UHGV virus genome: UHGV-0189653
Direction: 5' to 3' (one strand)
Origin: a virus
Length of the DNA: 51,563 bases
Made by a program: the position numbers and the translations under genes. The notes below the pieces were generated by a model. The model searched no databases and was not told where the DNA came from. It was given only the letters and a program-made list of their open reading frames with translations. How positions within the stretch are numbered: the stretch's first letter is position 1; every line of letters begins with the position of its first letter. Shown one piece after another: positions 1,550 through 24,208 of this stretch.

Positions 1550-1575
1550 CGCAATTAATGACATAGGAGGCTCCT

Positions 1576-2538: not shown

Positions 2539-2586
2539 TTTTCCGTTATTCCTCCTGTGGTACTGCCCTACAGGGGGACGCATTGA

Positions 2587-3356: not shown

Positions 3357-3479
3357 TTGTTAATTACGTACACTCTGTTACAGAGATGTGATGGTGTCTT
3401 TAATTAAATCGATGATGCTCCTGGAGAAAAGCATTGCGTGGCCTCGTAATCGCTATATCTACTATTATGTCGCCTGAAA

Positions 3480-3499
3480 CCCACTTCGGTGGGCTTTTT
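3480..3499 (+). terminator. short GC hairpin with UUCG tetraloop plus T-tract between G/T and tape measure gene
   Basis: cccac-ttcg-gtggg followed by cttttt immediately upstream of tape measure RBS. Confidence 0.4.
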
Positions 3500-3519
3500 G
3501 TTGTCTGGAGTTTTAATAA

Positions 3520-6500
3520 ATGGCAGAGCAAACCTCGCGTCTCGCAATAATTATTGATAGCACTGGAGCAAAAAATAATGCTGACAATCTGACCTCCTCA
3601 TTAGTCAAAATGACGCAGGCCGGGGAAACTGCTGCAAATAGCGCAGGGAAAGTGACTAAGGCAACAGAAGATGAGAAGAACGCGCTCGCAAAATTAAAAG
3701 CAGCTATTGATCCAGTTGGTGCCGCAATTGATACTGTCGGTCGACGCTATTCTGAATTAAAGAAATTTTTCGATAAAGGGCTTATTGATAAAGAAGAATA
3801 TGAATTTCTTGTCCGTAAACTTAATGAAACCACAGAGGAATTGAGCGGGGTTGCGCAAGCGCAGAGAGAAGCCGAGAAGGCCGGAAAACTTGCTGCCGCC
3901 CAGCAGGAATCGCAGGCTCAGGCCTTTCAAAGAATGCTGGACAAGATCGACCCTCTGGTTGCGGCGCTAAGAAATCTTGAACAACAGCAGGATGAACTTA
4001 ATGCTGCGTTTGCATCCGGGAAAATAAATGGTTCTCAGTTTGAGAATTATAGCCGAAAAATACAGGAAACACGGCGAGAGCTTACCGGAGAGGCTCAGGC
4101 AGAGCGAGAAGCAGCAAAAGCGCATGATGAACAGGTTGCTGCTTTGCAACGTCTGATTGCTCAACTTGACCCTGTCGGAACTGCTTTTAATCGTCTGGTA
4201 GAACAACAGAAACAGCTCAATGAAGCAAAAGCTAAGGGGATGCTCTCTCCTGAAATGTATGAGGAACTTTCTGGAAAACTTCGTGCTATGCGGAGTGAGC
4301 TTGAGGTTACTCAATCTCAATTAAGCAAAACCGGAATGTCGGCAAAACAAACGGCTTTTGCTATGCGCATGTTGCCTGCACAAATGACGGATATTGTTGT
4401 TGGGTTGTCCACTGGTCAGTCGCCTTTTATGGTGTTAATGCAGCAGGGCGGCCAGCTAAAAGATATGTTCGGTGGGATTGGCCCGGCGATCAAAGGTGTT
4501 GGTTCTTATGTGCTGGGATTAATTAATCCTTTTACCCTGGCCGCAGCAGCCGTTGGCGTCTTAGGGCTGGCTTACTATAAAGGCTCTCAGGAGCAGGACG
4601 AATTTAATAAATCTCTTATTCTTACCGGAAATCAGTTGGGGACAACCAGCGGGCAATTGGCCGATATAGCTCAACGTGCCGGGAATGCGGCTGATTCGAC
4701 AACTGGCGCTGCGGCGGCAGTATTAAACCAGCTTGTGCGTTCGGGAAAGGTAGCGAGCAGTTCGCTGGAGCAAGTGACGACAGCGATAGTAAAAACGAGC
4801 GAAGTAACAGGAATATCAACCGAACAACTGGTTAATGACTTCAATGAAATTGCAAAGGATCCTGTCAGTGCCATATCAAAACTTAATGATCAGTACCATT
4901 TTCTGACAATTGCGACTTATAACCAGATTAAGGCGCTACAGGATGAAGGGAACCAGCAGGAGGCCGCCCGCATTGCGACAGAAGCATACTCATCCTCAAT
5001 GATCCAGCGCACCAACCAGATTAAAGAAAATCTTGGTTATCTTGAGACTGCATGGAAAGCTGTCGCAGACTCCGCAAAATGGGCATGGGATTCCATGCTG
5101 GATATTGGCCGTGAGGCCTCCCTTGATCAAAAAATCTCAGATGTTCTCCGTCAAATTGATGAAATAGAAAAAAATACCCGACCCGGAGTTTTCGGGTTAG
5201 GTGGCATTGGAGATGGCGGAGCTCAAAATAAAAGGCTGGCACGATTAAAGCAGCAATTGGGCGTACTTCAAGCAGAAAAAATTGCTCAGGACGTACTAAA
5301 TTCATCAATAAACGATTACAACAAGCGACAACAGGAAGGAATTGAACTCAGACAGAGAGCAGATGCCTTTTCAAAACAATATCAGACCCGGGAGCAGCAG
5401 AGAGCTAGTGAACTTGCAAAACTGGAAAAACTAAAGAGTCAGTATTCAAAGGAAGAATATAATAATCTTATCGCTCAAATAAATGAGCGTTATAAAGATC
5501 CAAAGCAACCAAAGGCGAAAGGTTATTCGGATGATGCTGCCCAACGAATGATTGATCATCTGAATCAACAGAATGCGTTACTAAGTTCACAAACTGAATT
5601 AACCGTTAAATTAAGTTCCTCTGAACAGGAACTGGTTAAGTGGCGTCAGCAGATTGCCGACCTGGAGTCACGACCGTCATCGAAATTAACCAAGGATCAG
5701 AAATCGCTTCTCTTACACCGGGAAGAAATAACCGCGTTGATGGAGAAAAATGTTGCGATTGAAAAAAATAACAGGCTAATCAAGGAATCCGCCGAAATAG
5801 CTGCATGGCGTGATTCATTGCAGGCTTCGATTGATAATCGTCAACAGGGGTATGATATTCAGATTGCTGGTTATGGGGTTGGCGATAAAAATCAGCAACG
5901 CCAGCAGGAATTACTGCGGATTGAACGTGAATATAACAATCAGCGTCTGCAACTTGAACGTGACTATGCAGATAAATCCCGTGGGATGTCAAATCATGTT
6001 TTTCAGGAGAAAATGCAGGCTCTGAATGATGCTCTGGAACGAGAAAAAGAAATTGTCAGACAGAAAAACGAGCAGCTCGATATTCAGGCAGGAGACTGGG
6101 TTAGTGGTGCCTCCCAGGGATTCAATAACTGGCTGGATGACACTAAGGATATCAGTGAGCAGATAAAATCAACCACGACTCAGATGTTTGATGGAATGAC
6201 CGATGCGCTGGGTGATTTTGTCACGACAGGCAAGGCAAATTTTCGTTCTTTCGCTACTTCCGTGATTTCGGATCTTAGTCGAATAGCATTAAAGGCTTCA
6301 ATTACTCGGATTTTCGACAGCATTAGTAACAGTTCTTCGGGGGGGATTTTAGGAACTATCGGGAGTGCTATTAGTAAATTTATTCCGAATGCAAAGGGCG
6401 GTGTTTATGAGTCTCCGTCATTGAACACGTATTCGAACGGTATTTATGATTCCCCGCAATTTTTTGCTTTTGCAAAAGGGGCTGGTGTTTTTGGTGAGGC

Positions 6501-6753
6501 TGGTCCGGAAGCCATTATGCCATTAACACGAACTTCCGATGGTTCTCTTGGTGTCAGAGCTATTAATAGTAAAAGTGGTAATGGAGGCGGAGATATTACC
6601 TATGCCCCTGTATACCAAATCACTATTCAAAATGACGGCCAGAATGGAGAGATTGGCCCTCAGGCAATAAAAGCACTTATGGGGATGGTTGATCAGCGGG
6701 TGCAGGGCAATCTGTTAAATATGCGACGTGATGGGGGAATGTTAAGTGGCTAA
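3520..6753 (+). CDS. H: tail tape measure protein
   Basis: 1077-aa ORF, coiled-coil rich N-terminal half, hydrophobic central segment, position between G/T and M. Confidence 0.9.
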
Positions 6754-7084
6754 TACGGAAGAATTTCACTGGTTACCAGAGGATGGAATGAAAACAGAAA
6801 ATAAACCATCGATAAAAACTGTAAGATTTGGCGATGGTTATGAGCAACGAAGTCCAAATGGACTTAATCATTCTCTGCGCGTTTTCACCTGTGATTTCAA
6901 AGTTGAGGCGAATGAACGTGATTCATTTGAAAAATTTTTAGCCCGGCATGAAGGCTATAAATCTTTTTTTTGGCGCCCGCCTGGTATTAACAGAAAAATC
7001 AGAGTGGTGTGTCGAACGTGGTCAGCGACAGAACATATCACCTATACCGATTTTTCGTGTCAGTTTGACGAAGTGGTGATCTGA
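6746..7084 (+). CDS. M: minor tail protein M
   Basis: 112-aa ORF ([14 protein letters not shown]...) matching lambda gpM in size, sequence and order. Confidence 0.85.
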
Positions 7085-7782
7085 TGCAGGACATACAACA
7101 GGAAACGCTGAATGAATGCATTCGTGCGGAGCAGTCGGCCAGCGTGGTGCTCTGGGAAATCGACCTGACCGAGGTAGGCGGGGATCGCTACTTTTTCTGC
7201 AATGAGCAGAACGAGAAAGGAGAGTCTGTCACCTGGCAGAGTCGGCAGTATCAGGCCTATCCCATTCAGGGGAGTGGATTTGAGATGAACGGCAAAGGTG
7301 CCAGTGCAAGGCCAACGCTGAAAGTCTCTAATCTGCACGGCATGGTCACCGGGATGGCGGAAGACCTGCAGAGTCTGGTCGGCGGAACGGTGGTCAGGCG
7401 TAAGGTTTACGCCCGTTTTCTGGATGCGGTGAACTTCGTCAACGGAAACAGTGACGCCGATCCGGAGCAGGAGGTGATCAGCCGCTGGCGTATTGAGCAG
7501 TGCAGCGAACTGAGCGCGGTCAGTGCCTCCTTTGTACTGTCCACGCCGACGGAAACGGACGGCGCTGTTTTTCCGGGGCGCATCATGCTTGCTAATACCT
7601 GCACCTGGACCTATCGCGGTGATGAGTGCGGTTATCACGGTCCGGCGGTCGCGGATGAATATGACCAGCCGACATCCGAAATCACGAAGGATAAATGCAG
7701 CAAATGCCTGAGTGGCTGTAAGTTCCGCAATAATGTCGGCAACTTTGGCGGCTTCCTTTCCATTAACAAACTTTCGCAGTAA
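7084..7782 (+). CDS. L: minor tail protein L
   Basis: 232-aa ORF with C-terminal cysteine cluster (CTWTYRGDECGYHGP ... CSKCLSGC) typical of lambda gpL. Confidence 0.85.
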   Translation: MQDIQQETLNECIRAEQSASVVLWEIDLTEVGGDRYFFCNEQNEKGESVTWQSRQYQAYPIQGSGFEMNGKGASARPTLKVSNLHGMVTGMAEDLQSLVGGTVVRRKVYARFLDAVNFVNGNSDADPEQEVISRWRIEQCSELSAVSASFVLSTPTETDGAVFPGRIMLANTCTWTYRGDECGYHGPAVADEYDQPTSEITKDKCSKCLSGCKFRNNVGNFGGFLSINKLSQ

Positions 7783-9136: not shown

Positions 9137-12100
9137 ATGGGTAAAGGCAGCAGTAAGGGGCATACCCCGCGCGAAGCGAAGGACAACCTGAAATCCACGC
9201 AGCTGCTGAGTGTGATTGATGCCATCAGCGAAGGGCCGGTTGAAGGTCCGGTGGATGGATTAAAAAGCGTGCTGCTGAACAGTACGCCGGTGCTGGACAG
9301 TGAGGGGAATACCAATATATCCGGCGTCACGGTGGTGTTCCGGGCAGGTGAGCAGGAGCAGTCACCGCCGGAGGGGTTTGAATCCTCCGGCTCCGAGACG
9401 GTGCTGGGTACGGAAGTGAAATATGACACGCCGATCACCCGCACCATTACGTCTGCAAACATCGACCGTCTGCGCTTTACCTTCGGTGTGCAGGCACTGG
9501 TGGAAACCACCTCAAAGGGGGACAGGAATCCGTCGGAAGTTCGCCTGCTGGTTCAGATACAACGTAACGGTGGCTGGGTGACGGAAAAAGACATCACCAT
9601 TAAGGGCAAAACCACCTCGCAGTATCTGGCCTCGGTAGTGGTGGATAATCTGCCGCCGCGCCCGTTCAACATCCGGATGCGCAGGATGACGCCGGACAGC
9701 ACCACAGACCAGCTGCAGAACAAAACGCTCTGGTCGTCATACACCGAAATCATCGATGTGAAACAGTGCTACCCGAACACGGCACTGGTCGGCGTACAGG
9801 TGGATTCGGAGCAGTTCGGCAGCCAGCAGGTGAGCCGTAATTATCATCTTCGCGGGCGTATTCTGCAGGTGCCGTCGAACTATAACCCGCAGACGCGGCA
9901 ATACAGCGGTATCTGGGACGGAACGTTTAAGCCAGCATACAGCAACAACATGGCCTGGTGTCTGTGGGATATGCTGACCCACCCGCGCTACGGCATGGGT
10001 AAACGTCTTGGTGCGGCAGATGTGGATAAATGGGCGCTGTATGTCATCGGCCAGTGTTGCGACCAGTCGGTGCCGGACGGTTTTGGCGGCACGGAGCCGC
10101 GCATCGCCTGTAATGCGTACCTGACCACACAGCGAAAGGCGTGGGATGTGCTCAGTGATTTCTGCTCGGCGATGCGCTGTATGCCGGTATGGAACGGGCA
10201 GACGCTGACGTTCGTGCAGGACCGACCGTCGGATAAGGTGTGGACCTATAACCGCAGTAATGTGGTGATGCCGGATGATGGCGCGCCGTTCCGCTACAGC
10301 TTCAGCGCCCTGAAGGACCGCCATAATGCCGTTGAGGTGAACTGGATTGACCCGGACAACGGCTGGGAGACGGCAACAGAGCTTGTGGAGGACACGCAGG
10401 CCATTGCCCGTTACGGTCGTAACGTCACGAAGATGGATGCCTTTGGCTGTACCAGCCGGGGGCAGGCACACCGCGCCGGGCTGTGGCTGATTAAAACAGA
10501 ACTGCTGGAAACGCAGACCGTGGACTTCAGCGTGGGTGCCGAAGGGCTTCGCCATGTACCGGGCGATGTCATTGAAATCTGCGATGATGACTATGCCGGT
10601 ATCAGCATCGGCGGGCGCGTGCTGGCGGTAAACAGCCAGACACGGACGCTGACGCTCGACCGTGAAATCACGCTGCCATCCTCCGGTACCACGCTGATAA
10701 GCCTGGTTGACGGAAGTGGCAATCCGGTCAGCGTGGAGGTCCAGTCCGTCACCGACGGCGTGAAGGTAAAAGTGAGCCGTGTTCCTGACGGCGTTGCCGG
10801 ATACAGCGTATGGGGGCTGAAGCTGCCGACGCTGCGCCAGCGCCTGTTCCGCTGCGTGAGTATCCGTGAGAACGACGACGGCACGTATGCCATCACCGCC
10901 GTGCAGCATGTACCGGAAAAAGAAGCCATCGTGGATAACGGGGCGCACTTTGACGGCGAACAGAGTGGCACGGTGAACGGTGTCACGCCGCCAGCGGTGC
11001 AGCACCTGACCGCAGAAGTCACTGCAGACAGCGGGGAATATCAGGTGCTGGCGCGATGGGACACACCGAAGGTGGTGAAGGGTGTGAGCTTCCTGCTCCG
11101 TCTGACCGTAACAGCGGACGACGGCAGTGAGCGGCTGGTCAGCACGGCCCGGACGACGGAAACCACATACCGCTTCACGCAACTGGCGCTGGGGCGGTAC
11201 ACGCTGACAGTCCGGGCGGTAAATGCGTGGGGACAGCAGGGCGATCCGGCGTCGGTATCGTTCCGGATTGCCGCCCCGGCAGCGCCGTCGCGGATTGAGC
11301 TGACGCCGGGCTATTTTCAGATAACCGCCACGCCGCATCTTACCGTTTATGACCCGACGGTACAGTTTGAGTTCTGGTTTTCGGAAAAACGGATTGCTGG
11401 TATCAAGCAGGTTGAAACCACAGCGCGCTATCTTGGCACGGCGCTGTACTGGATAGCCGCCAGTATCAATATCAGGCCGGGCCATGATTATTATTTTTAC
11501 GTTCGCAGTGTGAACACCGTTGGCAAATCGGCATTCGTGGAGGCTGTTGGTCAGCCGAGTGATGATGCATCCGGTTATCTGGATTTTTTCAAAGGCGAGA
11601 TAGGGAAAACCCATCTGGCTCAGGAGCTGTGGACGCAGATTGATAACGGTCAGCTTGCGCCTGACCTGGCTGAAATCAGGACGTCCATTACGGATGTCAG
11701 CAATGAAATCACGCAGACCGTCAATAAGAAACTGGAAGACCAGAGTGCGGCAATTCAGCAGATACAGAAGGTTCAGGTTGATACAAATAATAACCTGAAC
11801 AGCATGTGGGCTGTGAAGCTGCAGCAGATGCAGGACGGACGCCTTTATATCGCGGGTATTGGTGCCGGTATTGAGAACACCCCTGACGGCATGCAGAGTC
11901 AGGTGCTGCTGGCGGCGGACAGGATTGCGATGGTTAATCCTGCGAATGGCAACACAAAACCGATGTTTGTTGGTCAGGGCGATCAGATATTCATGAACGA
12001 CGTGTTCCTGAAACGCCTGACGGCCCCCACCATTACCAGCGGTGGAAATCCACCGGCATTTTCCCTGACACCGGACGGAAAGCTGACTGCTAAAAATGCG

Positions 12101-12619
12101 GATATCAGTGGCAGTGTGAATGCGAACTCCGGGACGCTCAACAACGTCACGATTAATGAGAACTGTCAGATTAAGGGGAAACTGTCAGCCAATCAGATTG
12201 AAGGCGATATTGTCAAAACGGTCAGCAAGTCTTTCCCCCGCACGAACAGTTATGCCAGTGGCACCATCACGGTAAGAATCAGTGATGATCAGAAATTTGA
12301 CCGGCAGGTCATGATACCGCCAGTGTTATTCCGCGGTGGTAAGCATGAGAATTTCAACAGTAATAACCAACAGTCATACTGGTATTCAACCTGCCGGTTA
12401 AGAGTGACCCGCAATGGTCAGGAGATTTTTAATCAGTCCACGACGGATGCTCAGGGCGTATTTTCCTCCGTTATAGATATGCCTGCCGGACAGGGGACGC
12501 TGACACTGACATTCACCGTATCTTCATCAGGAGCGAATAACTGGACACCAACAACCAGTATCAGCGATCTGCTGGTTGTGGTGATGAAAAAATCCACAGC
12601 AGGTATCAGTATCAGCTGA
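9137..12619 (+). CDS. J: host specificity protein J (central tail fibre / tip attachment protein)
   Basis: 1160-aa ORF, N-terminus [24 protein letters not shown] as in lambda J; follows I. Confidence 0.9.
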
Positions 12620-12637
12620 ATTTTATAACCCAGAACG

Positions 12638-12662
12638 GGCGTCAGAAATGACGCCTTTTTTA
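12638..12662 (+). terminator. intrinsic terminator after J
   Basis: ggcgtca-gaaa-tgacgcc hairpin followed by T6. Confidence 0.6.
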
Positions 12663-12685
12663 TTGCAGAAAAGCGAGAGGTAATT

Positions 12686-13285
12686 ATGCGTAAAGTTTGT
12701 GCAGCAATTTTGTCCGCAGCCATCTGTCTGGCCGTATCCGGTGCGCCTGCATGGGCGTCTGAACATCAGTCCACGCTGAGCGCGGGGTATCTTCATGCCC
12801 GGACGAACGTTCCCGGCAGCGATGATCTGAACGGGATTAACGTGAAATACCGTTATGAGTTTACGGACACACTGGGGATGGTGACGTCATTCAGCTATGC
12901 AGGAGACAAGAATCGCCAGCTGACCCATTACAGCGATACCCGCTGGCATGAAGATTCCGTGCGTAACCGCTGGTTCAGCGTGATGGCGGGGCCGTCTGTG
13001 CGCGTGAATGAATGGTTCAGCGCGTATGCGATGGCGGGTGTGGCTTACAGCCGTGTGTCGACTTTCTCCGGGGATTATCTTCGCGTAACTGACAACAAGG
13101 GGAAAACGCACGATGTGCTGACCGGAAGTGATGACGGTCGCCACAGCAACACGTCTCTGGCGTGGGGAGCTGGCGTGCAGTTTAACCCGAACGAATCCGT
13201 GGCCATTGATATTGCTTATGAAGGTTCCGGCAGTGGCGACTGGCGCACTGACGGTTTCATCGTGGGTGTCGGTTATAAGTTCTGA
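12686..13285 (+). CDS. lom: Lom outer membrane protein (Ail/Lom/OmpX family beta-barrel)
   Basis: 199-aa ORF with signal peptide and C-terminal GYKF; matches lambda Lom; flanked by terminators. Confidence 0.9.
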   Translation: MRKVCAAILSAAICLAVSGAPAWASEHQSTLSAGYLHARTNVPGSDDLNGINVKYRYEFTDTLGMVTSFSYAGDKNRQLTHYSDTRWHEDSVRNRWFSVMAGPSVRVNEWFSAYAMAGVAYSRVSTFSGDYLRVTDNKGKTHDVLTGSDDGRHSNTSLAWGAGVQFNPNESVAIDIAYEGSGSGDWRTDGFIVGVGYKF

Positions 13286-13311
13286 TTAGCCAGGTAACAC
13301 AGTGTTATGAC

Positions 13312-13339
13312 AGCCCGCCGGTTCAGGCGGGCTTTTTTG
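13312..13339 (+). terminator. intrinsic terminator after lom
   Basis: agcccgcc-ggttca-ggcgggct hairpin followed by T6. Confidence 0.6.
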
Positions 13340-13343
13340 TGGG

Positions 13344-16300
13344 GTGAATATGGCAGTAAAGATTTCAGGTGTACTGAAAGACGGCACAGGAAAACCGGTA
13401 CAGAACTGCACAATCCAGCTGAAAGCAAAACGTAACAGCACCACGGTGGTGGTGAACACGCTGGCCTCAGAAAATCCGGATGAAGCCGGGCGTTACAGCA
13501 TGGACGTTGAGTACGGTCAGTACAGCGTTATTCTGTTGGTGGAAGGATTCCCGCCGTCACATGCCGGGACCATCACCGTGTATGAAGATTCTCAACCCGG
13601 TACGCTGAATGATTTTCTCGGTGCCATGACGGAGGATGATGCCCGTCCGGAGGCACTGCGCCGTTTTGAACTGATGGTGGAAGAGGTGGCGCGTAACGCG
13701 TCCGCGGTGGCACAGAACACGGCAGCCGCGAAGAAGTCAGCCAGTGATGCCAGCACATCAGCCCGTGAGGCGGCAACCCATGCGGCTGATGCTGCGGACT
13801 CAGCACGCGCAGCCAGCACGTCAGCCGGACAGGCCGCGTCGTCGGCTCAGTCAGCGTCTTCCAGCGCAGGAACGGCATCAACAAAGGCCACTGAAGCATC
13901 AAAAAGTGCTGCCGCTGCAGAGTCCTCAAAAAGCGCGGCGGCCACCAGTGCCGGTGCGGCGAAAACGTCAGAAACGAATGCTTCAGCGTCACAACAATCA
14001 GCAGCCACATCTGCATCCACCGCGACCACGAAGGCATCAGAAGCTGCGACCTCGGCCCGGGATGCGGCGGCCTCAAAAGAGGCGGCAAAATCATCAGAAA
14101 CGAGCGCAGCCTCGAGCGCCGGCAGTGCAGCTTCCTCGGCAACGGCGGCAGGAAATTCCGCGAAGGCCGCAAAAACGTCTGAGACGAATGCGGATAACAG
14201 CGCACAGGCGGCAGCAGACTCACAAACTGCATCGGCAAACTCCGCGACATCAGCCAAAAAATCAGAAACCAACGCGAAAAATAGTGAGGCAGCAGCAAAG
14301 GTCAGCGAAACCAACGCTAAAGCGTCAGAGAACAAGGCGAAAGAATATCTCGACAAGGTCGGGGGACTCGTCAGCCCGATGACGCAATACGATTGGCCCG
14401 TTGTTACTGGTAGTGAGTCTTTTTACATAAAGATCGCGAAACTTTCCGATCCTGGAAGCAACAATTGCCATGTAACGCTAATGGTTACTAATGCCGGTAA
14501 CTACGGCTCCCCTTACGGAAACATTGACTTTATCGAGATCTCGGCGCGCGGTCTGCCTTCTTTGCTTAGTGCGGATAATGTTTCTCGTCATCTGAGTATA
14601 CGCCGCTTAGGGTCAACCGGGCTGACCGATAACAACCAGATGCGTTACGGCCTGGTTAAAGGTGACGGCTTTATTGAGGTTTGGGCATTCCAGGGTGCGT
14701 TTATTAACGACGCAAAGGTTGCGGTGCTGGCGCAGACAACACTAAACACAGAATTATACATTCCAGACGGATTTGTTAAGCAAACCGCCGCGCCTTCTGG
14801 ATATATTGAAGGCAACGTTGTAAGGATTTACGACCAGGTAAACAAGCCGACTAAAGCAGATTTGGGTCTTTCTAATGCTATGCTTACAGGCGCTTTCGGT
14901 CTTGGCGGTAGCGGGATATCAACAAACGGCAAGATGAGCGATGTAGAGATCTTAAAAGCTCTGCGTGACAAAGGTGGTCATTTCTGGCGCGGTGATAAGC
15001 CGACCGGAAGCACGGCGACCATTTATAGCCACGGTTCTGGTATATTCTCGCGGTGCGGCGATACGTGGTCAGCGATCAATATCGACTACTCAACCGCGAA
15101 GATTAAGATCTATGCCGGCAACGATGCCCGGCTTAACAACGGGACTTTTAGCGTCAATGAGCTATACGGAACCAAAAACAAGCCGTCGAAATCGGATGTT
15201 GGACTCGGCAACGTAACTAACGATGCGCAGGTGAAAAAATCCGGCGATGTTATGTCAGGTGATCTTGATATATTGAAAGAAACGCCGTCTATCAGGCTAA
15301 AATCAGCAAAAGGAACCGCTCATCTGTGGTTCATGAACAACGACGGCGAGCGCGGCGTTGTTTGGGCGCCTGTAAATACTGATACGCTTGGCGAAGTTCG
15401 CATCAGGGCTAAAAACGCAAAAGGTGAATCAAGTGGTGATTTTGTTGTTCGCCACGACGGGAGGGTTGATGCCCGCGATCTAAAAGTAACGTACAAAATC
15501 AGTGGAGCCACCGCAGAGCTTGCAAACACATCAACTGACGTGGCTAATACTACGTTAAAAATCAGCGGATCACAGCATACGCCTTTAGTTTTAACTCGCA
15601 GTGGAGAAATTAAAAACTTATCCATTGGGTTTAAGGTTGATGATGTTGAACAAAAATATCTCGGCGTATACGGTGACGGTAATTTGTATTTCGGTAATTC
15701 CTCTGACCACTCAAAAAACAGCAGAGTAATTACACAAGCAATACTCGATAGCGGGGTAACGGTAGGCGGTAAAACAACATTTTCTGACCTTGCCACATTT
15801 AACGCTGGCATATCTGGCGCAATCGAACCTGAAAGCATTTCTGAAGTGACCGTTGATCTTAATGATCTGACCATTAAAGGCACAGATAAAGGATCGGTTA
15901 AATACTATCAGTGCAGAACTGCCGGAGGTGGTGCGAATATTACCAATAAGCCTGACGGCGTAGGCGGTAACTTTTTGCTTCGTGTAGAGTCGATTCGTAA
16001 GATTAGGGATTCAGATTATGCGAACATGCAAACGCTGATTGGCAGCGACACAAAACGTATATACGTTCGCTTTGTTGTTAATGGAAACTGGACAGCGTGG
16101 AGTCAGGTTGTTGTTTCCGGATGGAATCAGGATGTAACCGTCAGGTCGTTAACCTCGACGACTCCATCAAAATTAGGTGGCGGGCGTGTTGACGTGCTTG
16201 GAAGTACGTCAGATTACAACAGCATGAATTGTGCTGTGCGTGGTGTTGATAACACTGGAACCAATTCGGCGTGGTCGGTAGGTACATCAGAAAGCACAGG

Positions 16301-17108
16301 CAAAATGTTGTTCCTGAAAAACCACAGAAGCAGCGCTCAAGTGCTGTTAAATGGCGATGATGGCGCGGTTCAACTCAAAACAGGTGCTGTTAACGGGGCT
16401 ACAGCGCAGGCGCTCACTATCAACAGGAATGAGGTTAACTCAACCGTTGATTTAACCCTTACAAAGCAATCAGGGACTGGTAATCGTTTTGTTTTACAGA
16501 ACTCAGGTAATGCAGAACTACCGTTTTCTGTCAGGGTGTGGGGTTCCAGTACTCGTCAAAACGTTTTTGAGGTTGGAACGTCTGCTGCGTATCTGTTTTA
16601 TGCGCAAAAAACAACAGACGGGCAAAACCTTACTGTAAACGGAAGTGTTAACTGCACCACACTGAATCAGTCATCAGACCGCAGACTGAAAGAAAATATC
16701 GAGATTATCGATAACGCGACTGACGCAATCCGCAAAATTAATGGATACACGTACACGCTCAAGGAGAATGGGGCACATTGCGCCGGGGTTATAGCCCAGG
16801 AAGTTGAAGAGGCCATCCCGGAGGCCGTTGGTTCATTCATCCATTACGGTGAAGAGTTGCAAGGCCCGACCGTTGACGGCAACGAGCTACGCGAAGAAAC
16901 GCGCTATCTTAATGTTGACTACGCCGCCGTGACGGGTTTACTTGTTCAGGTCGCCCGTGAAACAGATGATCGCGTTACCGCGCTGGAAGAGGAAAACACA
17001 ACGCTACGTGAAAATCTGGCAACAGCAGACACCCGGATCAGCACTCTGGAAAATCAGGTAAGCGAACTGGTTGCACTTGTCCGGCAGTTAACAGGAAGCG
17101 AACATTGA
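13344..17108 (+). CDS. stf: side tail fibre protein with C-terminal peptidase S74-type intramolecular chaperone domain
   Basis: 1254-aa ORF; lambda Stf-like N-terminus (MAVKISGVLKDGTGKPVQNCTIQL); Ala/Ser-rich SETNA repeats; C-terminal SDRRLKENI motif (16671-16700) plus coiled coil, the signature of self-cleaving chaperone domains. Confidence 0.85.
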   Translation: MNMAVKISGVLKDGTGKPVQNCTIQLKAKRNSTTVVVNTLASENPDEAGRYSMDVEYGQYSVILLVEGFPPSHAGTITVYEDSQPGTLNDFLGAMTEDDARPEALRRFELMVEEVARNASAVAQNTAAAKKSASDASTSAREAATHAADAADSARAASTSAGQAASSAQSASSSAGTASTKATEASKSAAAAESSKSAAATSAGAAKTSETNASASQQSAATSASTATTKASEAATSARDAAASKEAAKSSETSAASSAGSAASSATAAGNSAKAAKTSETNADNSAQAAADSQTASANSATSAKKSETNAKNSEAAAKVSETNAKASENKAKEYLDKVGGLVSPMTQYDWPVVTGSESFYIKIAKLSDPGSNNCHVTLMVTNAGNYGSPYGNIDFIEISARGLPSLLSADNVSRHLSIRRLGSTGLTDNNQMRYGLVKGDGFIEVWAFQGAFINDAKVAVLAQTTLNTELYIPDGFVKQTAAPSGYIEGNVVRIYDQVNKPTKADLGLSNAMLTGAFGLGGSGISTNGKMSDVEILKALRDKGGHFWRGDKPTGSTATIYSHGSGIFSRCGDTWSAINIDYSTAKIKIYAGNDARLNNGTFSVNELYGTKNKPSKSDVGLGNVTNDAQVKKSGDVMSGDLDILKETPSIRLKSAKGTAHLWFMNNDGERGVVWAPVNTDTLGEVRIRAKNAKGESSGDFVVRHDGRVDARDLKVTYKISGATAELANTSTDVANTTLKISGSQHTPLVLTRSGEIKNLSIGFKVDDVEQKYLGVYGDGNLYFGNSSDHSKNSRVITQAILDSGVTVGGKTTFSDLATFNAGISGAIEPESISEVTVDLNDLTIKGTDKGSVKYYQCRTAGGGANITNKPDGVGGNFLLRVESIRKIRDSDYANMQTLIGSDTKRIYVRFVVNGNWTAWSQVVVSGWNQDVTVRSLTSTTPSKLGGGRVDVLGSTSDYNSMNCAVRGVDNTGTNSAWSVGTSESTGKMLFLKNHRSSAQVLLNGDDGAVQLKTGAVNGATAQALTINRNEVNSTVDLTLTKQSGTGNRFVLQNSGNAELPFSVRVWGSSTRQNVFEVGTSAAYLFYAQKTTDGQNLTVNGSVNCTTLNQSSDRRLKENIEIIDNATDAIRKINGYTYTLKENGAHCAGVIAQEVEEAIPEAVGSFIHYGEELQGPTVDGNELREETRYLNVDYAAVTGLLVQVARETDDRVTALEEENTTLRENLATADTRISTLENQVSELVALVRQLTGSEH
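13700..14340 (+). repeat. Ala/Ser-rich low-complexity coding repeats within stf (SETNA-type)
   Basis: Reiterated KTSETNA / KSSETSA / KVSETNAKA units visible in the translation; causes spurious ORFs in other frames. Confidence 0.6.
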
Positions 17109-17291
17109 TATCCTTCAAGCTCTGAAGGAGGCTGTTCCCGGTACGTTCAGACTGTTGTTGAGCTGGAAATCGCAACGGAGGAAGAGAAAGCGTTACTGGC
17201 CGCATGGAAAAAGTATCGGGTGTTGCTGAACCGTGTTGATACATCAACTGCACCTGATATTGAATGGCCTGCTGTCCCTGTTATGGAGTAA
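17109..17291 (+). pseudogene. tfa: 3-prime remnant of a tail fibre assembly (tfa) gene
   Basis: Directly after the stf stop, in frame and without a start codon, the sequence encodes ...[43 protein letters not shown], the conserved C-terminal tail of Tfa proteins. Confidence 0.5.
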
Positions 17292-17504
17292 TCGTTTTGT
17301 GATATACCGCAGACACGTTGTATGCAGGAACGTGCTGCGGCTGGCTGATGCACTTTCGAGAGTGCATGTATTGAATTATTTCCAGCTATTATCGATTTTA
17401 CGTATTTTTTGCATGAGAGAATTTGTACCTCCTCCCAACAACGACCTTCCATGACTTTCCGGACTTTTGTGGGCCAGCGGACGATGCTGTCCTCGGATGT
17501 TGTG

Positions 17505-18362
17505 CTAATTGGGTGATGACAAATCCTGTCTATGAGCGTTTCCCTTTGTGCGTGCGTTGAAGCTGATAACGGTAAACGTCATGATGAACACAACCGCGAA
17601 TAAGACGACAATCGTCGGAGCTGGTGCGCTGTCGATAAAAAAGGACAGCCAGACACCAGTCATTGAGACTATTACCGATATGCCAGTCGCCAGTAGGAGC
17701 GCAATATGAAAGCGTTGTGTCAGGAGTACCGCAATGGCGCCAGGCGCAATGAGCAGAGAAATGGAGAGAATGATACCTACTGCTTTCAGCGTTGCCACAA
17801 TGGTCAGGGAAACCATGCACAGCAGCCCATAATGCAGCCATCTCGTATGCAAACCGCTTACCTGCGCCTGTTGATAATCAAAGCTGAACAGCAAAAAATC
17901 CCGCCATTTTACGCTAATAACAAGTGTAACCAGCCCGGCAATAATCACCGTCTGGATTATATCGCCGATGGTTACCCCGAGCATGTTGCCGAAAAGAATA
18001 TGGTCAAGATGTACGTCTGGTTTGACTGCAATATACAAGATCAGACCTGCGGCAAACATGCCAGAAAAAACAATCCCCATCACTGTATCTTGCTTGATTC
18101 GGCTGTTGTCTTTCAGGTATCCCGTCGCCACCGCGCAGAATACTCCGGCGATAAATGCCCCTGTAGCCAGAGGTAACCCCAGAATCCAGGCAAGCACGAT
18201 GCCAGGAAAAACCGCATGACTCATCGCGTCACCCATCAGTGCCCAACCTTTCAGGACCAGAAAGACCGACAGCAGCGCACAGGGTATGGAAACTACCAGT
18301 GAAATCAGCAGTGCGTGACTCATAAAGGTAAACTGCAGTGGCTCCAGTAATAATGCCATCAT
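17505..18362 (-). CDS. sitD: Mn/Fe ABC transporter permease SitD
   Basis: 285-aa polytopic membrane protein, ABC-3 family, last gene of a four-gene minus-strand operon with overlapping junctions. Confidence 0.85.
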   Translation of the reverse strand: MMALLLEPLQFTFMSHALLISLVVSIPCALLSVFLVLKGWALMGDAMSHAVFPGIVLAWILGLPLATGAFIAGVFCAVATGYLKDNSRIKQDTVMGIVFSGMFAAGLILYIAVKPDVHLDHILFGNMLGVTIGDIIQTVIIAGLVTLVISVKWRDFLLFSFDYQQAQVSGLHTRWLHYGLLCMVSLTIVATLKAVGIILSISLLIAPGAIAVLLTQRFHIALLLATGISVIVSMTGVWLSFFIDSAPAPTIVVLFAVVFIMTFTVISFNARTKGNAHRQDLSSPN

Positions 18363-19216
18363 GAGCGATCCTCCAGCGCTTTATGCGCACGCCGACGATT
18401 TGCCAAAAGCCCATGGGTGGGCGCAAATACAAATGCTAAAAGAAACAGCAGTGTCTGCGCTACCACGATGATTCCACCTGTCGCGCCGTCCAGAAAGTAA
18501 CTGACCCACGCGCCGAGGAAACTGGTTACACTGCCAATAGTTACAGCAATTATGAGCAGGCGGGGAAAACGATCGGTTAACAACCATGCTGTTGCACCGG
18601 GAGTCACCACCAGACAGATCACCAGAAAGGCACCAACCGTTTGCAGCGCCGCAACGGTCGAAACCGACAGCAGGGTGAAGAAGAGGATTTTTAATCTGCC
18701 CGGATGCAATCCAATAGCACGGGCGTGATTCTCGTCGAAAAAGGTCACCATAAGATCTTTCCATTTGAAAAAAAGCACGATGATCGAGAGAATGCCAATG
18801 ATAGTGAGTTGCAGGATATCCGCCGGATCGATTGCCAGAATATTGCCCAATACGATGGTCTGAATGTTCACGGATGTCGGGTTCAATGACACCATAAACA
18901 GCCCCAGGCCAAAAAAGGAGGAGAAGATCAGGCCGATGATGGCATCTTCTTTTAAGCGAGTGCGTTGGTTAAGAAACAGCATGCTGCCCGCTGCCAGTCC
19001 GCCGGAAAAGAAGGCTCCCAGAGAAAACGGAAGCCCCAGCATATATGCTCCCGCAACACCCGGGACAATAGAGTGCGACAGCGCATCGCCAATCAGCGAC
19101 CAGCCTTTTAGCATCAGATAGCATGACAGGAAAGCGCAGAGACCGCCAACCATCGCCGAGACCCACATCGCATTGAGCATATATTCATAGCTGAAGGGTT
19201 CCAGTAGCACGTTCAT
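18359..19216 (-). CDS. sitC: Mn/Fe ABC transporter permease SitC
   Basis: 285-aa ABC-3 permease paralogue; 4-nt overlap with sitD and sitB. Confidence 0.85.
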
Positions 19217-20040
19217 CTTGCTTCCCTCTGCACCGCTGACGGTCGATGTGCCACAAAAGGGCGTTCATCGTCAGTAATAATGCTTTCTTCCGAGCCGTTA
19301 AGTGTGACATGGCGCAGTACGCCGCTAAAAGCCAGCTCCAGGTTCTCGGCTGTAAAAGTGGTGTCTGTCGGCCCGCTTGCCAGGACGGTGTTTTTGACCA
19401 TGACCGTATAATCGCAAAATGTCGTGACTGAGCCGAGATTGTGCGTTGAGACAAGCATCGTCTTGCCTTCCGCGCGTAACTCCCTCAACAGGCTGATGAT
19501 TTTCGCTTCGGTTTTCACATCAACGCCGGTAAAAGGTTCATCCAGCAGGATCACATCACCCTGCTGTGCAATCGCTCTCGCCAGAAAGACGCGTTTCTTT
19601 TGTCCACCGGAAAGCTCGCCGATTTGTCGATGGCGAAAATCCACCATATCGACACGTTCCAGCGCATCGGTGACAATCTGACGATCCCTCTTTTTGGCTA
19701 TACGCAACATACCCATGTGCCCATAGCGGCCCATCATCACCACATCTTCCACTAGTACAGGAAATGACCAGTCAACCTCTTCTGACTGAGGGACGTAGGC
19801 AACCAGGTTTTTCTGTAGCGCCTGTCGCGTGGGAATACCCAGAACAGATATCTTTCCGCTGGTCAGACGCACAAATCCCATAATCGCTTTAAACAACGTC
19901 GATTTTCCGGAACCGTTTACCCCAACCAGAGCGGCAATAGATCCACTTGGTACTGTGAAGGATGCATCGCGCAGTGCTGTGTGCCCGTTACGCCAGGTGA
20001 CAGTAACATCATTAACGACAATGCCCGCAGATTGCATCAT
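19213..20040 (-). CDS. sitB: Mn/Fe ABC transporter ATP-binding protein SitB
   Basis: 275-aa ORF with Walker [13 protein letters not shown] signature LSGGQ and Walker B ILLDEP. Confidence 0.9.
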
Positions 20041-20954
20041 TATTTCTCCCTTTTCCCGGCTTTAATTCCCTGTACCAGCGTACTGGTAGTAACCTTCAGA
20101 AGGTCGATATACGTAGGTACCGGGCCGTTTTCTGTGCTCAGGGAATCGACATAGAGTACACCGCCGTAGTGCGCGCCGGTTTCACGCGCAACCTGACGCG
20201 CTGGTTTATCGGAAATCGTACTCTCGCTAAAGACTGCCGGGATATGATTTTTCTTCACCATATCAACAACCTTACGTACCTGCTGCGGCGTGCCTTGTTG
20301 ATCGGCATTAATCGGCCACAGATAAAGCTCTTTTAGCCCCAAATCGCGTGCGAGATAAGAAAAAGCCCCTTCACTGGTGGCCATCCATCGCTGATTCTCA
20401 GGGAGTTCAGCAATCTGCTTACGCAGGGGGGCAAGGGTTTGGGTAATCTTGGCTTTATAAGTATCGGCATTACGTTGGTAGGTTTGTGCATTTGCCGGAT
20501 CGTATTTTATCAACGCATCACGAATATTATCGACGTAAATCAGAGCATTATCTGGCGACATCCAGGCATGGGGGTTAGGTTTGCCCTCATAGGGGCCTTC
20601 AGTGATCCCTACTGGCGTCACACCCGAAGAGACAATTACTTCTGGAACCCCATTAAGATGCTGGTAAAAGCGTTGGAACCACAATTCCAGATTCATACCA
20701 TTGGCGAGAATCAGTTGTGCCCCCTGCGCACGTTTAATATCGCCAGGGGTAGGCTGATACTCATGAATTTCTGCACCGGGCTTGGTTATGGATGAGACTT
20801 CTGCAGCATCTCCAGCCACGTTTTTGGCCATATCTGCGATGATGGTAAATGTTGTAATGACCTTGAATTTTTCAGTTGCACTCGCCTGAAATGCGATCGA
20901 GCAGGTGAGGGCGAGGCACCCCAAGAGCATGGTTACTTTTTTTATTGAGTACAT
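20040..20954 (-). CDS. sitA: periplasmic Mn/Fe-binding protein SitA
   Basis: 304-aa ORF with signal peptide ([18 protein letters not shown]), cluster-9 substrate-binding protein; first gene of operon. Confidence 0.9.
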
Positions 20955-20986
20955 AATTTAGTACCTATAGTGAGCAAAATTAGAAC

Positions 20987-21008
20987 AAACATAGCAACGG
21001 CTATGTTT
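20987..21008. promoter_or_regulatory. MntR box upstream of sitA
   Basis: Perfect inverted repeat AAACATAGC-aacg-GCTATGTTT, matching the MntR operator consensus as I recall it. Confidence 0.6.
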
Positions 21009-21031
21009 TATAGCATAAGCAATACAAAATG

Positions 21032-21050
21032 AAAATGATTATCATTAGCA
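21032..21050. promoter_or_regulatory. Fur box-like site upstream of sitA
   Basis: gaAAATGATtATCATTAgC matches ~15/19 of Fur consensus GATAATGATAATCATTATC. Confidence 0.5.
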
Positions 21051-21159
21051 ATTTTAGATCCGAACCGGGATTAGGTTGTTTCCTGCTGGCGACGTGGTAC
21101 TGAGGAAAAAAGTAGGGCACCTATTAGGCTTTGAAATGACTTGATGAGGAAAATTGTTG

Positions 21160-21410
21160 ATGGCAAAAATGGGGCAAAGCGCTGCAAAAGGGGCAAAAAA
21201 GGGGCAAAAAAAGAGTGGGTTATCGTAGCTTATTGTTGTCGCTGATGATATTTAACACATTGAAAAATAAGTAAAATACTTATGAGTCAGAGAGTTGTGA
21301 TTTTTGCCCTTACTTGTTCAGGTTGTATTGTTCTTTCTTTGTAATTTGTTGATTTTCTTGCATTATTTCAGTTCTCTGGTACTAAATGGGGCAAATTGGG
21401 GGCAAACTTT
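21160..21410. other. attP: phage attachment site region (attP-like) with integrase arm-type repeats
   Basis: Direct repeats of (T/G)GGGCAAA at 21162-21210 (four to five copies), inverted copy TTTTGCCC at 21302-21309, two more direct copies at 21387-21407 abutting the int 3-prime end; core not delimited. Confidence 0.5.
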
Positions 21411-21414
21411 GCAA

Positions 21415-22650
21415 CTATGATAACCGCGCATTCAACATGGCTATCTGTTCGTCGTTCATGTCATCAATCCACATACCGTAAATTTCATACACCATCTGCG
21501 CAGTTTCATGCCCCATTTGGCTGGCTATAAATGCCGGGTTCGCTCCTGCCGTCAACAGCCAGCAGGCAAAAGTATGCCGCGTATGGTACGGATTACGGCG
21601 GCGAATACCAGCACGTTTTACTGCTGCATTCCACCTTGCCCCCAAACTGCTTACCGAGTAATAAGGTTTTTGTTTTCCGTTACACACCCTGGGCATGAAA
21701 ACAAAATGCAGTTTTTGCTTTTCGGTTCTGCCGTACTCCCGATGATAAAAGGTGATTTCGCTTTTGCGATGATGCCCGGTCAGTTTGTATTGCTCCTTCA
21801 GTGCTTCAAGAGCAGGCTGCAGTAGTGTTACTGTCCGGATCCCGGCATTTGTTTTTGGGGGACCGAACATATCAAGTATCGTCAGGTTTCTTCTGACATT
21901 CACTATTCCCTTTTCGAGATCCACATCCTCCCACGCCAGAGCTGCCAGTTCCCCGTGACGAAGTCCTGAGTAAACTGCAAATTTCCACATGTTCTGGCTC
22001 TGTCCTTTTTCACTTTCCATTAATGCATTGAATTCTGTTTTAGATAACGGATCAGGCTTTATTCTGTTTCGCTGTAATTTTTTTACTCCTTCAAATGGTT
22101 TGGTTGATATAAATCCCGACTGATACGCAAAACGTAACAGCGAACAGAGCAGGGCGATATAGTTATCAACTGTGCGCACGGTTCTTCCTTTTTTGTTGGA
22201 TCTTGGATTATCCAGGTAAAGCGTTTCTCCATGCAGCAGTTCATTCCGGTAGTTTAAGATATCGCTATAACGAATATGTGATATCAGGGTACTTTCACAA
22301 ATTATTATTCTGAGTGTTTTTAATTGTGATTTCGTTTTCTTCATTGTGTTTGTTGTTAACTCTGTCTCTTTAATTTTTGTCCAGATATCACAAAGCTCTC
22401 CGAACGTTTTTATGACTCTCGTTGTCACCATTTTTGCCCCAGTGCTGGACTGGGGAAAACGTCTTAAATACTCAAATTCACCGGAGTTTATTTCATGAAC
22501 TATCAGCGCTCTTAAATTTCCGGCCTTTTTAATATTACTGTTTGTAATCTCCCAGCCTTTTAATGTTTCCCGACATCGTTTTCCTCGAAACATGAACCAG
22601 ATGCGAATGTATCTACCTCTAATCTCGACACCTGTTGGTAATTTAGACAT
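21415..22650 (-). CDS. intR: tyrosine integrase (Rac IntR-like)
   Basis: 411-aa ORF, N-terminus MSKLPTGVEIRGRYIRIWFMFRGKRCRETL, C-terminal catalytic R..HxxR..Y region; adjacent to att repeats. Confidence 0.95.
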   Translation of the reverse strand: MSKLPTGVEIRGRYIRIWFMFRGKRCRETLKGWEITNSNIKKAGNLRALIVHEINSGEFEYLRRFPQSSTGAKMVTTRVIKTFGELCDIWTKIKETELTTNTMKKTKSQLKTLRIIICESTLISHIRYSDILNYRNELLHGETLYLDNPRSNKKGRTVRTVDNYIALLCSLLRFAYQSGFISTKPFEGVKKLQRNRIKPDPLSKTEFNALMESEKGQSQNMWKFAVYSGLRHGELAALAWEDVDLEKGIVNVRRNLTILDMFGPPKTNAGIRTVTLLQPALEALKEQYKLTGHHRKSEITFYHREYGRTEKQKLHFVFMPRVCNGKQKPYYSVSSLGARWNAAVKRAGIRRRNPYHTRHTFACWLLTAGANPAFIASQMGHETAQMVYEIYGMWIDDMNDEQIAMLNARLS

Positions 22651-22966: not shown

Positions 22967-23155
22967 TCACGAGGACTGAAGTTTCTCGCAATTAAAATTT
23001 ATCAGTTTTACTTTCTGCTCTCTGGAAACGCCTGCTTCTTTTTTACCTGAGAGCATTTTTTCGCATTCTGATTTCGTTAGTTTAGATTTTGAATATCTTG
23101 TCCAGTTAGTAGGAGTGCCACCTTCCTTTTCAATAGTGGCGGTAATTTTATACAT
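22967..23155 (-). CDS. ydaC: YdaC-like protein, function unknown
   Basis: Start MYKITATIEKEGG overlaps the lar stop (translational coupling); Rac order. Confidence 0.55.
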   Translation of the reverse strand: MYKITATIEKEGGTPTNWTRYSKSKLTKSECEKMLSGKKEAGVSREQKVKLINFNCEKLQSS

Positions 23156-23342
23156 GAACACCTCCGTTATTATTTCCAGTGGTTCGTTTATTCCATCTTT
23201 CGAGTGCTTCTTTTTCACTTCCACCATAACCGGTTCGGGATTCGCATCCGTTACACTTCGCTCGGTAATATCCTGAAATGACTTTCACCGTTACTGATGG
23301 ACAACCACAAAATGGACATGGTTTAACATTGTCATATCTCAT
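23148..23342 (-). CDS. ralR: restriction alleviation protein Lar (RalR, type I TA toxin DNase)
   Basis: 64-aa product MRYDNVKPCPFCGCPSVTVKVISGYYRAKCNGCESRTGYGG... with CxxC...CxxC zinc ribbon. Confidence 0.85.
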   Translation of the reverse strand: MRYDNVKPCPFCGCPSVTVKVISGYYRAKCNGCESRTGYGGSEKEALERWNKRTTGNNNGGVHV

Positions 23343-23398
23343 AATTTTTCTCATAAAAAATATTTCAAGTTGGCGGTGCATTACACCGCCAGGCTGAA

Positions 23399-24208
23399 TT
23401 ATTCCTCTGAATTATCGATTACACTGTATTCCCCGGTTAATACAGAGGAATCTGCAGGATCGATTGTCAGTGGTTCCTTTTCATCCATTGATACTGCACG
23501 CTGGATCTCAATTGATACGGGCAGATATTTGAACAGGCGACGAATAGCCGTTTTCTTTGCCATTTCTTCCCAGTGAGTTACCCACGGCCCGTTATTACCA
23601 GCTTTACTCAGGCTGCGCACCAGCTCAATCTGTTTGCGCGTCATAACTTCAAACTGAGTACCTCCGTCTTTCAGTCTTGCGACAGCATAGACGTGGGTAA
23701 CCGGGGCATCTTCGTTTTCTCCCGGGCGGTGTATTAACTTTTCATCAAGGCCAAATTCGAAGCTAAACTCGTCACCTTCACGGACAACACGGGCTGACAG
23801 GCTGGCGATTTGACCAGAACGGCGAGCCAGATCAATCATGCCGCGATAGCCAATGATTAGCTGAACGTTCTTTTTACCGCTCTTTTCGTTTTTATTACCA
23901 AAAGGCAGTAAATATGCATGACCGAGGGCGCTACCTGGCTCAAGTCCGAGCTGTGAACACTGTACGATCGCACTGACAAAACTCATAGTGTCACAGTTTC
24001 CTAACGCCGGAACTTTACGAATTTCTGTGGTGGCGATACGGATCATACGTTCAACCGTCATATGGCGTGGAAGAGCTGCTGCCAGTTGCTCTTTCATTGA
24101 TGGCTGGTTAATAAAACTAATCACGTCGCTATTTTTAACTGCTGCTGGTGCACGGTTTCCCTGAGTTTTTTGCAGATCGGCTTTTGCGATTGGTGGTTGC
24201 TTAGTCAT
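23399..24208 (-). CDS. recT: recombinase RecT (single-strand annealing protein)
   Basis: 269-aa product starting [16 protein letters not shown]; start overlaps recE stop. Confidence 0.95.

Follow-up and report, generated by a model that had tools for sequence, protein, structure and literature searches.

A lambdoid side tail fibre gene with a predicted intramolecular chaperone and a probably inherited tfa remnant behind it

Why should a side tail fibre gene that appears to encode its own chaperone be followed by a piece of the gene for a separate one, and was that piece truncated where it now lies or had it already been truncated when it arrived? The question is raised by UHGV virus genome UHGV-0189653, a stretch of 51,563 nucleotides (nt) that was analysed as a whole and is called the window here. 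In this lambdoid phage genome, the side tail fibre gene stf is followed directly by a 3′ fragment of tfa, the gene for the tail fibre assembly protein (Tfa). We consider it very probable that a lambdoid stf gained a self-chaperoning distal cassette and that the piece downstream is an inherited tfa scar that was spread by homologous recombination. The parts of the locus on which this reading depends are as follows.

13350 to 17108, plus strand: stf, the side tail fibre gene, intact and matched over its full length by PHROG tail fibre families
13350 to 14185, plus strand: lambda-type Stf N-terminal module (attachment domain and Ala/Ser/Thr-rich repeats), matched by PF08400; putative left homology arm
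14031 to 16205, plus strand: shaft/knob region resembling T5 pb1 (the L-shaped tail fibre), Stf amino acids (aa) ~230 to 954, defined by the pb1 alignment
16206 to 16673, plus strand: distal domain of the predicted mature fibre, aa 955 to 1110, with weak similarity to the T4 gp34 C-terminal repeat
16674 to 17108, plus strand: predicted Peptidase_S74 intramolecular chaperone domain (PF13884), aa 1111 to 1254, and the stop codon
17109 to 17144, plus strand: linker of ~37 nt between the stf stop and the tfa remnant, matching no tfa
17145 to 17291, plus strand: tfa 3′ remnant, 48 codons and a stop, corresponding to lambda Tfa residues 147 to 194 (the conserved C-terminal helical domain), defined by Pfam, lambda Tfa, and Mu U matches

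By sequence, the C-terminus of Stf would be an intramolecular chaperone of the S74 type. The Pfam family Peptidase_S74 (PF13884) matches at aa 1111 to 1162 (E = 2.4e-16; 60.2 bits against a cut-off of 22 bits; profile positions 1 to 57 of 58), and the motif SDRRLKENI, encoded at 16674 to 16700, stands at the start of the match. In a pairwise alignment, Ser1111 (codon 16674 to 16676) and Lys1116 (codon 16689 to 16691) of the segment S1111-D-R-R-L-K1116 fall opposite Ser1264 and Lys1269 of T5 pb1. In pb1, Ser1264 is the scissile and catalytic serine, Lys1269 activates it, and cleavage takes place between Thr1263 and Ser1264 (PMC4690869); the predicted cleavage site in Stf is the corresponding bond between Ser1110 and Ser1111. 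Across 26 homologues that are 50 to 93% identical, the motif never varies at its Ser, Asp, Leu, and Lys, and every database homologue bears a PF13884 or S74 name. Among solved chains, S16 gp37 (PDB 6F45; E = 2e-9) is the nearest in sequence, with SSDRR(L/I)K common to both. The chaperone domain makes up the last 144 residues of Stf, and past the Pfam match a long helix is predicted at aa ~1193 to 1250 (pLDDT, the predicted local distance difference test, 79 to 89); there are also incidental coiled-coil Pfam matches. An earlier reading of the DNA made from its letters alone (the sequence-only reading) had named the SDRRLKENI motif, an S74-type chaperone, and a coiled coil at this end of Stf, and all three agree with these results; the Ser/Lys dyad, whose absence together with a lack of cleavage would have spoken against that reading, is present in the alignment.

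Stf as a whole is a three-part chimera, in which a lambda Stf N-terminus is followed by a T5 pb1-like shaft and then by a distal domain with the S74 chaperone. The N-terminal module matches PF08400 (phage_tail_N; E = 1.2e-71) and PDB 9e7m (E = 5e-52), and aa 3 to 286 are 87% identical to lambda Stf residues 1 to 284; the presence of this family and the position of the gene after J and lom place it among the lambda-type stf genes. In the shaft, aa ~230 to 954 are 56% identical to T5 pb1 aa ~100 to 819 over ~720 aa, and phrog_24369 matches with an E value of 1e-298. The likeness extends to the DNA, as three stretches within 14075 to 15412 are 77 to 87% identical to T5 ltf at the nucleotide level, which would imply a fairly recent exchange between virulent T5-like and temperate lambda-like phages. 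Lambda-like and T5-like similarity overlap in an Ala/Ser-rich repeat at 14075 to 14191, and this repeat is a likely site for a homologous crossover between the two modules. The homology to pb1 covers the shaft and does not include the bullet-shaped receptor-binding domain (pb1 970 to 1263), which has no counterpart in Stf; past pb1 residue 819, only the Ser/Lys dyad motif aligns. The distal domain of Stf, which is presumed to be the receptor-binding end, has weak sequence matches to PDB 5nxf/4uxe, the T4 gp34 C-terminal repeat (E of ~3e-4). A search of NCBIfam matched no family to Stf or to the translation of the tfa remnant.

The 183 nt that follow the TGA stop of stf (17109 to 17291) are in the same frame as the gene and translate to 60 residues; the shared frame by itself is a one-in-three event and carries no weight. 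The sequence-only reading had taken about 60 startless codons to match the Tfa C-terminus. Their frame and the lack of a usable start hold, whereas the Tfa-like part is 48 codons long and the first 12 codons match nothing. The alignments to lambda Tfa and Mu U that this reading called for bear out the identity of the 48 codons, which are 81% identical to lambda Tfa residues 147 to 194 (E = 1e-26) and match Mu U residues 133 to 174 (PDB 5YVQ_B; E = 1.7e-6) as well as the Pfam family Caudo_TAP (PF02413; E = 4e-21; profile positions 86 to 130 of 131). The Stf and tfa matches are far beyond chance.

The rest of tfa is missing from the window. Nothing 5′ of 17145 matches any tfa, which leaves codons 1 to 146, and with them the N-terminal fibre-binding domain, without a counterpart, and a tblastn search with lambda Tfa over the 51.5-kb window returned residues 147 to 194 at the remnant and no second Tfa-like sequence. 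In-frame GTG, TTG, or ATG codons occur only at 17220, 17223, and 17283, deep inside the remnant, and no Shine-Dalgarno-like sequence was seen just upstream of them. The stretch thus has the C-terminal helical (trimerisation) region of Tfa and neither a fibre-binding domain nor a translatable gene, and it is best called a gene fragment; the equivalent stretch in relatives is labelled “tail fiber assembly protein, incomplete, missing N-terminus” by the Prokaryotic Genome Annotation Pipeline (PGAP). Because it is without the binding domain and without a start codon, we regard the remnant as probably non-functional and untranslated.

The linker ahead of the remnant has a less obvious source. When 50,697 phage records were searched for it with blastn (E ≤ 10), the matches did not rise above chance level. 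The possibility that it is diverged tfa was considered and rejected, its alignment to the tfa genes of lambda and of ON032529 (a relative described below) being no better than chance as judged by eye. The linker contains a perfect Shine-Dalgarno-like AAGGAGG (17126 to 17132) with no ATG, GTG, or TTG after it, and this may be a relic of the gene that stood behind the fibre in the original donor.

The state of the locus before the cassette arrived appears to be preserved in ON032529, a record that was deposited as a Salmonella phage and includes an E. coli uspF-ompN flank. At the same chromosomal locus, it has the order lom, a 1008-codon stf, an intact 194-codon tfa, and sitDCBA. It is 97.3% identical to the window at the nucleotide level over 11960 to 14185, 98.3% identical over 17160 to 21356, and unrelated in between, and a finer identity profile places the left boundary at ~14185 and the return to 97 to 100% identity at ~17340. 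This shows a clean cassette replacement at stf-tfa, in which the exchanged cassette runs from ~14186 to 17340 in the window and includes the tfa remnant. The sequence-only reading had described the junction as a recombination scar left when a fibre tip replaced an ancestral stf-tfa module. The comparison with ON032529 supports the replacement; the replaced piece, however, is more than a tip, namely, the distal three quarters of stf including the T5 pb1-like shaft, and the scar does not appear to have been made in this phage.

The last point needs to be argued, since a same-locus relative with an intact stf-tfa and near-identical flanks is also what favours a scar made in situ, in which an illegitimate insertion or replacement struck the stf-tfa that the phage already had and 17145 to 17291 is left over from the resident tfa. 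The remnant itself speaks against this. It is only ~80 to 87% identical to the resident-type tfa of ON032529, and near-identity is regained only from ~17340; therefore, the remnant probably arrived with the cassette. Its central 45-mer, furthermore, is confined among IMG/VR sequences to copies that bear the junction (7 of 7), and the junction recurs, with every base the same, in three isolated phages as well as in hundreds of unrelated genomes. Taken with these data, an origin of the scar within this phage is very improbable.

The distribution of the junction can be given in more detail. The succession of stop codon, linker, and remnant is identical at every base in E. coli ES2 and in the phages mEp460, Ayreon, and PhiR70_1, and no tfa is annotated after stf in any of the four. 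A 121-nt probe used with megablast found the junction in 805 of 5426 complete E. coli genomes (~15%), at 1379 places, and every genome record with a match has at least one place that covers ≥80% of the probe at ≥95% identity. In IMG/VR, 50 contigs contain the exact 30-nt junction pattern. The GTDB species representatives do not match this pattern, a result that says little, as an exact match was required and each species is represented by one genome. An assembly or chimeric-contig artefact could in principle create such a junction, but its probability is negligible, as the complete genomes come from independent projects and the phage genomes are finished.

Nucleotide diversity was compared over 47 distinct copies of the junction. 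From −180 to +60 around the stop codon, a span that takes in the end of the coiled coil, the stop, the linker, and the first remnant codons, it is 0.00 to 0.04; identity from −3 to +27 is forced by the 30-nt retrieval pattern, of which the flanks (−180 to −4 and +28 to +60) and the megablast result are independent. Diversity is ~0.10 in the rest of the remnant, 0.34 to 0.59 past +150, and 0.1 to 0.3 in the distal fibre domain. Recurrent end points of the homology to the window lie at +138, +164, and +239 on the right and at −2782 (position 14324) on the left. Within −200 to +140, the four-gamete test finds all four gametes at 170 of 595 informative site pairs, which puts the Hudson-Kaplan minimum at 10 recombination events over 340 nt. 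In the remnant, short haplotype blocks form a patchwork, and an exact 42-mer of one remnant haplotype is common to at least 24 full-length tfa genes. These patterns suggest that the junction has a single origin, is widespread, and was inherited by this phage rather than made in it.

Other decapitated tfa genes are found behind other fibres. At the same chromosomal locus, the E. coli strain CUVM3 (NZ_CP116970; 1951 to 6132 of its locus) has an stf followed by three open reading frames (ORFs) of 282, 1041, and 294 nt, the second of which encodes a tail fibre domain; the 282-nt and 294-nt ORFs could encode another kind of fibre chaperone. This cassette, too, precedes a tfa 3′ remnant, which is independent of the one in the window, with a breakpoint ~15 nt further in. 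Six IMG/VR loci contain other tfa truncations or fusions (at about codon 18, at about codon 105, and in one case by fusion to a 633-codon ORF). Short PHROG families of 78 to 130 aa match the remnant with their C-termini, and there are short families (phrog_2341, phrog_3792, and phrog_5572) made up mainly of the Tfa C-terminus. Because of the CUVM3 remnant, the other truncated forms, and these short families, we conclude that decapitated tfa genes are a common by-product of fibre cassette exchange.

In addition to marking past exchange, the remnant probably acts today as a homology arm for recombination. A stronger form of this idea is that the conserved tfa 3′ block is kept behind Tfa-independent cassettes as their right-hand homology arm, a “universal linker” for the swapping of host-range modules. 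The independent remnants that have other breakpoints and stand behind other cassettes support this proposal, as does the clustering of crossovers inside the block. The data do not distinguish between selection for such a role and recent ancestry with ongoing recombination, and we consider the proposal unlikely.

The preferred account, an inherited scar without protein function, must also be weighed against a functional remnant, which could act as an extension of Stf by read-through of the TGA, as a small trimerising peptide, or as a cis-acting RNA or DNA element at the end of the late operon. In favour of a function, every copy keeps the remnant in the reading frame of stf, and in 53 of 54 copies that frame is uninterrupted and ends in Tfa-like C-terminal tails that vary. 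However, haplotypes that are exactly common to intact tfa genes explain an open frame without selection, one copy is frameshifted, and both common linker polymorphisms alter the first codon position and with it the notional amino acid (Ser/Pro and Arg/Trp). Diversity is even lower in the non-coding 37-nt linker than in the remnant, which indicates that conservation here reflects recent ancestry. A low ratio of nonsynonymous to synonymous substitution rates (dN/dS) on the remnant would be meaningless, because the remnant exchanges sequence with intact tfa genes. A read-through extension would, moreover, sit on a domain that is predicted to be cleaved off anyway. As to a separate peptide, the PHROG families of 78 to 130 aa mean that short Tfa C-terminus ORFs have been called in other phages, but the remnant in the window has no start codon with a ribosome-binding site, and its AAGGAGG is followed by no start. 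The part of Tfa that binds the fibre is the variable N-terminal domain, which is the part that is missing here; the conserved C-terminal helices only trimerise (PMC9608196). A cis-acting element might have been sought in the imperfect hairpin past the remnant (~17307 to 17340), which was examined as a distinctive element or terminator and rejected, as it has no T-run and an ordinary fold energy (z = −0.84). Overall, a function of the remnant in any of these forms is very improbable.

The domain identities, breakpoints, distribution, and mosaicism are observed, and the course of events that would connect them under the inherited-cassette account is as follows. On the precedent of the homologous T5 pb1 and endosialidase-type fibres, three chains of Stf would trimerise from the C-terminus, with the S74 domain (aa 1111 to 1254) as the nucleus. 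Once the trimer is correctly folded, Ser1111, activated by Lys1116, would cut the Ser1110-Ser1111 bond, the 144-residue chaperone would be released, and a mature fibre of ~1108 residues would remain, with no need for a separate Tfa. At the DNA level, a cassette of this kind would first have been joined to an stf-tfa locus by illegitimate recombination that decapitated tfa, the original join lying just past the fibre stop codon on one side and at about codon 147 of tfa on the other. This single junction would then have spread among E. coli lambdoid prophages via homologous recombination, with left crossovers in the 5′ repeat region of stf and right crossovers inside the conserved tfa 3′ block or a little past it, and the phage in the window would have received its fibre cassette together with the scar. 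The remnant would persist owing to the youth of the junction and to ongoing recombination with the intact tfa genes of other prophages.

Several points weigh against this account or limit what it can claim. Cleavage of Stf and its independence of Tfa are predictions by homology. The AlphaFold2 (AF2) monomer model of aa 941 to 1254, built from a 26-sequence alignment, gives no structural confirmation, with a pLDDT of 59 overall and 30 to 47 in the chaperone domain, and the helix at aa ~1193 to 1250 is its sole confident part. When the PDB was searched with this model in Foldseek, no match reached E ≤ 1e-3; OspA and T4 gp34 came closest, at E of ~0.03 to 0.1. A chain that is modelled apart from its intertwined trimer can be expected to give a poor model. 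The viability of mEp460 and Ayreon was considered as proof of Tfa-independence and rejected: side tail fibres are dispensable for the growth of lambda in the laboratory, including the formation of plaques, and for this reason viability is no proof that a fibre folds without Tfa. The diversity minimum at the junction is partly circular, as noted above, and the open frame of the remnant in nearly all copies could be read as a sign of constraint. Exchange with intact tfa genes and the youth of the junction nevertheless explain the open frame, with no selection required.

The surroundings of the locus are those of a lambdoid phage, with J (9137 to 12619) and lom (12686 to 13285) ahead of a hairpin and stf. 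Three further features adjoin or overlap the parts listed above.

13312 to 13333, plus strand: terminator-like hairpin of the intrinsic type with a T-run, between lom and stf; mEp460 and Ayreon have an annotated terminator at the equivalent site
17292 to 17340, plus strand: lambda-like sequence past tfa with an imperfect hairpin inside; the lambda match runs to 17340, which is also the end of the putative imported cassette in the comparison with ON032529
17038 to 17253 and 17147 to 17452, minus strand: ORFs from the ORF list that overlap the remnant

The stf frame is open over 1254 codons on the plus strand (13344 to 17108) from a mechanically assigned GTG start at 13344, which gives MNMAVKISG at the N-terminus, compared with MAVKISG in lambda Stf. 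The true start is most likely the ATG at 13350, which would give 1252 codons, because the protein would then begin with MAVKISG as in lambda Stf and because GGGGTGA lies just 5′ of this codon. PGAP places the start at the equivalent ATG in relatives.

Between the tfa remnant and a tyrosine integrase gene (21415 to 22650, minus strand) lies sitDCBA, an operon for an iron/manganese ATP-binding cassette transporter (17505 to 20954, minus strand). The match to chromosomal prophage copies ends at 21356; therefore, the window appears to be in the order of the excised phage, with attP at ~21357 to 21414, and sit would be phage cargo. The sit genes have already been reported as cargo in lambda-like coliphages of the infant gut (PMC6969025). 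Further on is an early region of the Rac type (22971 to 26801), which contains the RalA antitoxin small RNA (Rfam, 225 bits), recT (23399 to 24265), and recE, encoding exonuclease VIII (24201 to 26801), and a sok-like antitoxin RNA is found at 35279 to 35449.

The excised order bears on a further alternative, in which stf is a decaying prophage relic with an inactive S74 domain and 13350 to 17291 is on its way to becoming a pseudogene. Close relatives give some grounds for this, since the same stf is split by a frameshift in ES2 (3351 to 7109 of its locus) and interrupted by the IS4-like element ISVsa5 in EC1722-1 (1169 to 6109 of its locus). Thus, stf decays in resident prophages, but in the window its 1252-codon frame is intact, and the tail, integration, and recombination genes of the window are complete and stand in the order of the excised phage. 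The invariance of the motif Ser, Asp, Leu, and Lys across the 26 homologues also argues against decay, as do three plaque-forming phages that share the architecture. We therefore hold this alternative to be quite unlikely and retain the reading of an intact, self-chaperoning fibre gene.

The junction and both of its parts are already annotated by PGAP and in RefSeq and are known both in kind and in this instance. The locus is a clean example of the movement of a host-range module and of an intramolecular chaperone that would make a separate assembly chaperone redundant. For annotation pipelines and phage engineers, the 48-codon stretch is best treated as a pseudogene fragment, and processing of Stf at Ser1110/Ser1111 is to be expected. 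The conserved blocks at 13350 to 14185 and 17145 to 17340 are probably natural recombination arms and could be used for swapping lambdoid fibre cassettes. Beyond correct annotation, the importance of the feature is small, as it represents textbook tail fibre mosaicism.

Among known systems, the nearest are mEp460 (NC_019716), Ayreon (MF807953), and PhiR70_1 (PV340577), which, like the window, have a lambda-type Stf N-terminus, an S74 C-terminus, the identical junction, and no full-length tfa. Over the distal 914 aa, the Stf of Ayreon and that of the window are 82% identical. The copies differ in the middle of the fibre, and mEp460 and PhiR70_1 do not have the T5-like stretch found in the window from −2782 to about −936. 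Downstream of the remnant, mEp460 has dinI/int where the window has sitDCBA. In E. coli prophages in RefSeq, PGAP names the fibre “pyocin knob domain-containing S74 family peptidase” or “tail fiber domain-containing protein.”

The phages mEp010 and MagusPhagus have a related chaperone domain (77 to 78% aa identity) that ends at the stop codon with no tfa remnant behind it, and homology of the window to their chaperone genes stops exactly at the stop codon; therefore, the remnant does not seem to be intrinsic to the chaperone module. The annotation of mEp010 places a rho-independent terminator just past this stop. The mEp010 chaperone (PP180001; about 2960 to 2990 of its locus) also has Cys in place of the nucleophile Ser (NQSCDRDLK, compared with NQSSDRRLK in the window) and may be a Cys-nucleophile variant or an inactive form.

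T5 pb1 (PDB 4UW7/4UW8; Garcia-Doval et al. 2015, PMC4690869) shares with Stf the shaft, the Ser/Lys chaperone, a coiled coil past the dyad, and the absence of a separate Tfa, but the two chaperone domains are only ~29% identical, and the attachment domain in the window is of the lambda type instead. Endosialidase-type S74 domains (MEROPS S74/PF13884; K1F endoNF; S16 gp37, 6F45) are represented by the S-D-x-x-L-K motif common to the window and S16 gp37; they differ in that the passenger in the window is a fibre with a T4 gp34-like distal repeat and not a sialidase beta-propeller or a tailspike. The Stf-Tfa pair of lambda (Ur-lambda) has the 87% identical N-terminal 284 aa and the same gene order, J-lom-stf-(tfa), whereas its distal fibre is unrelated and the tfa of the window is without codons 1 to 146. 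Phage fibres generally carry either a C-terminal intramolecular chaperone or a downstream Tfa (BASEL paper).

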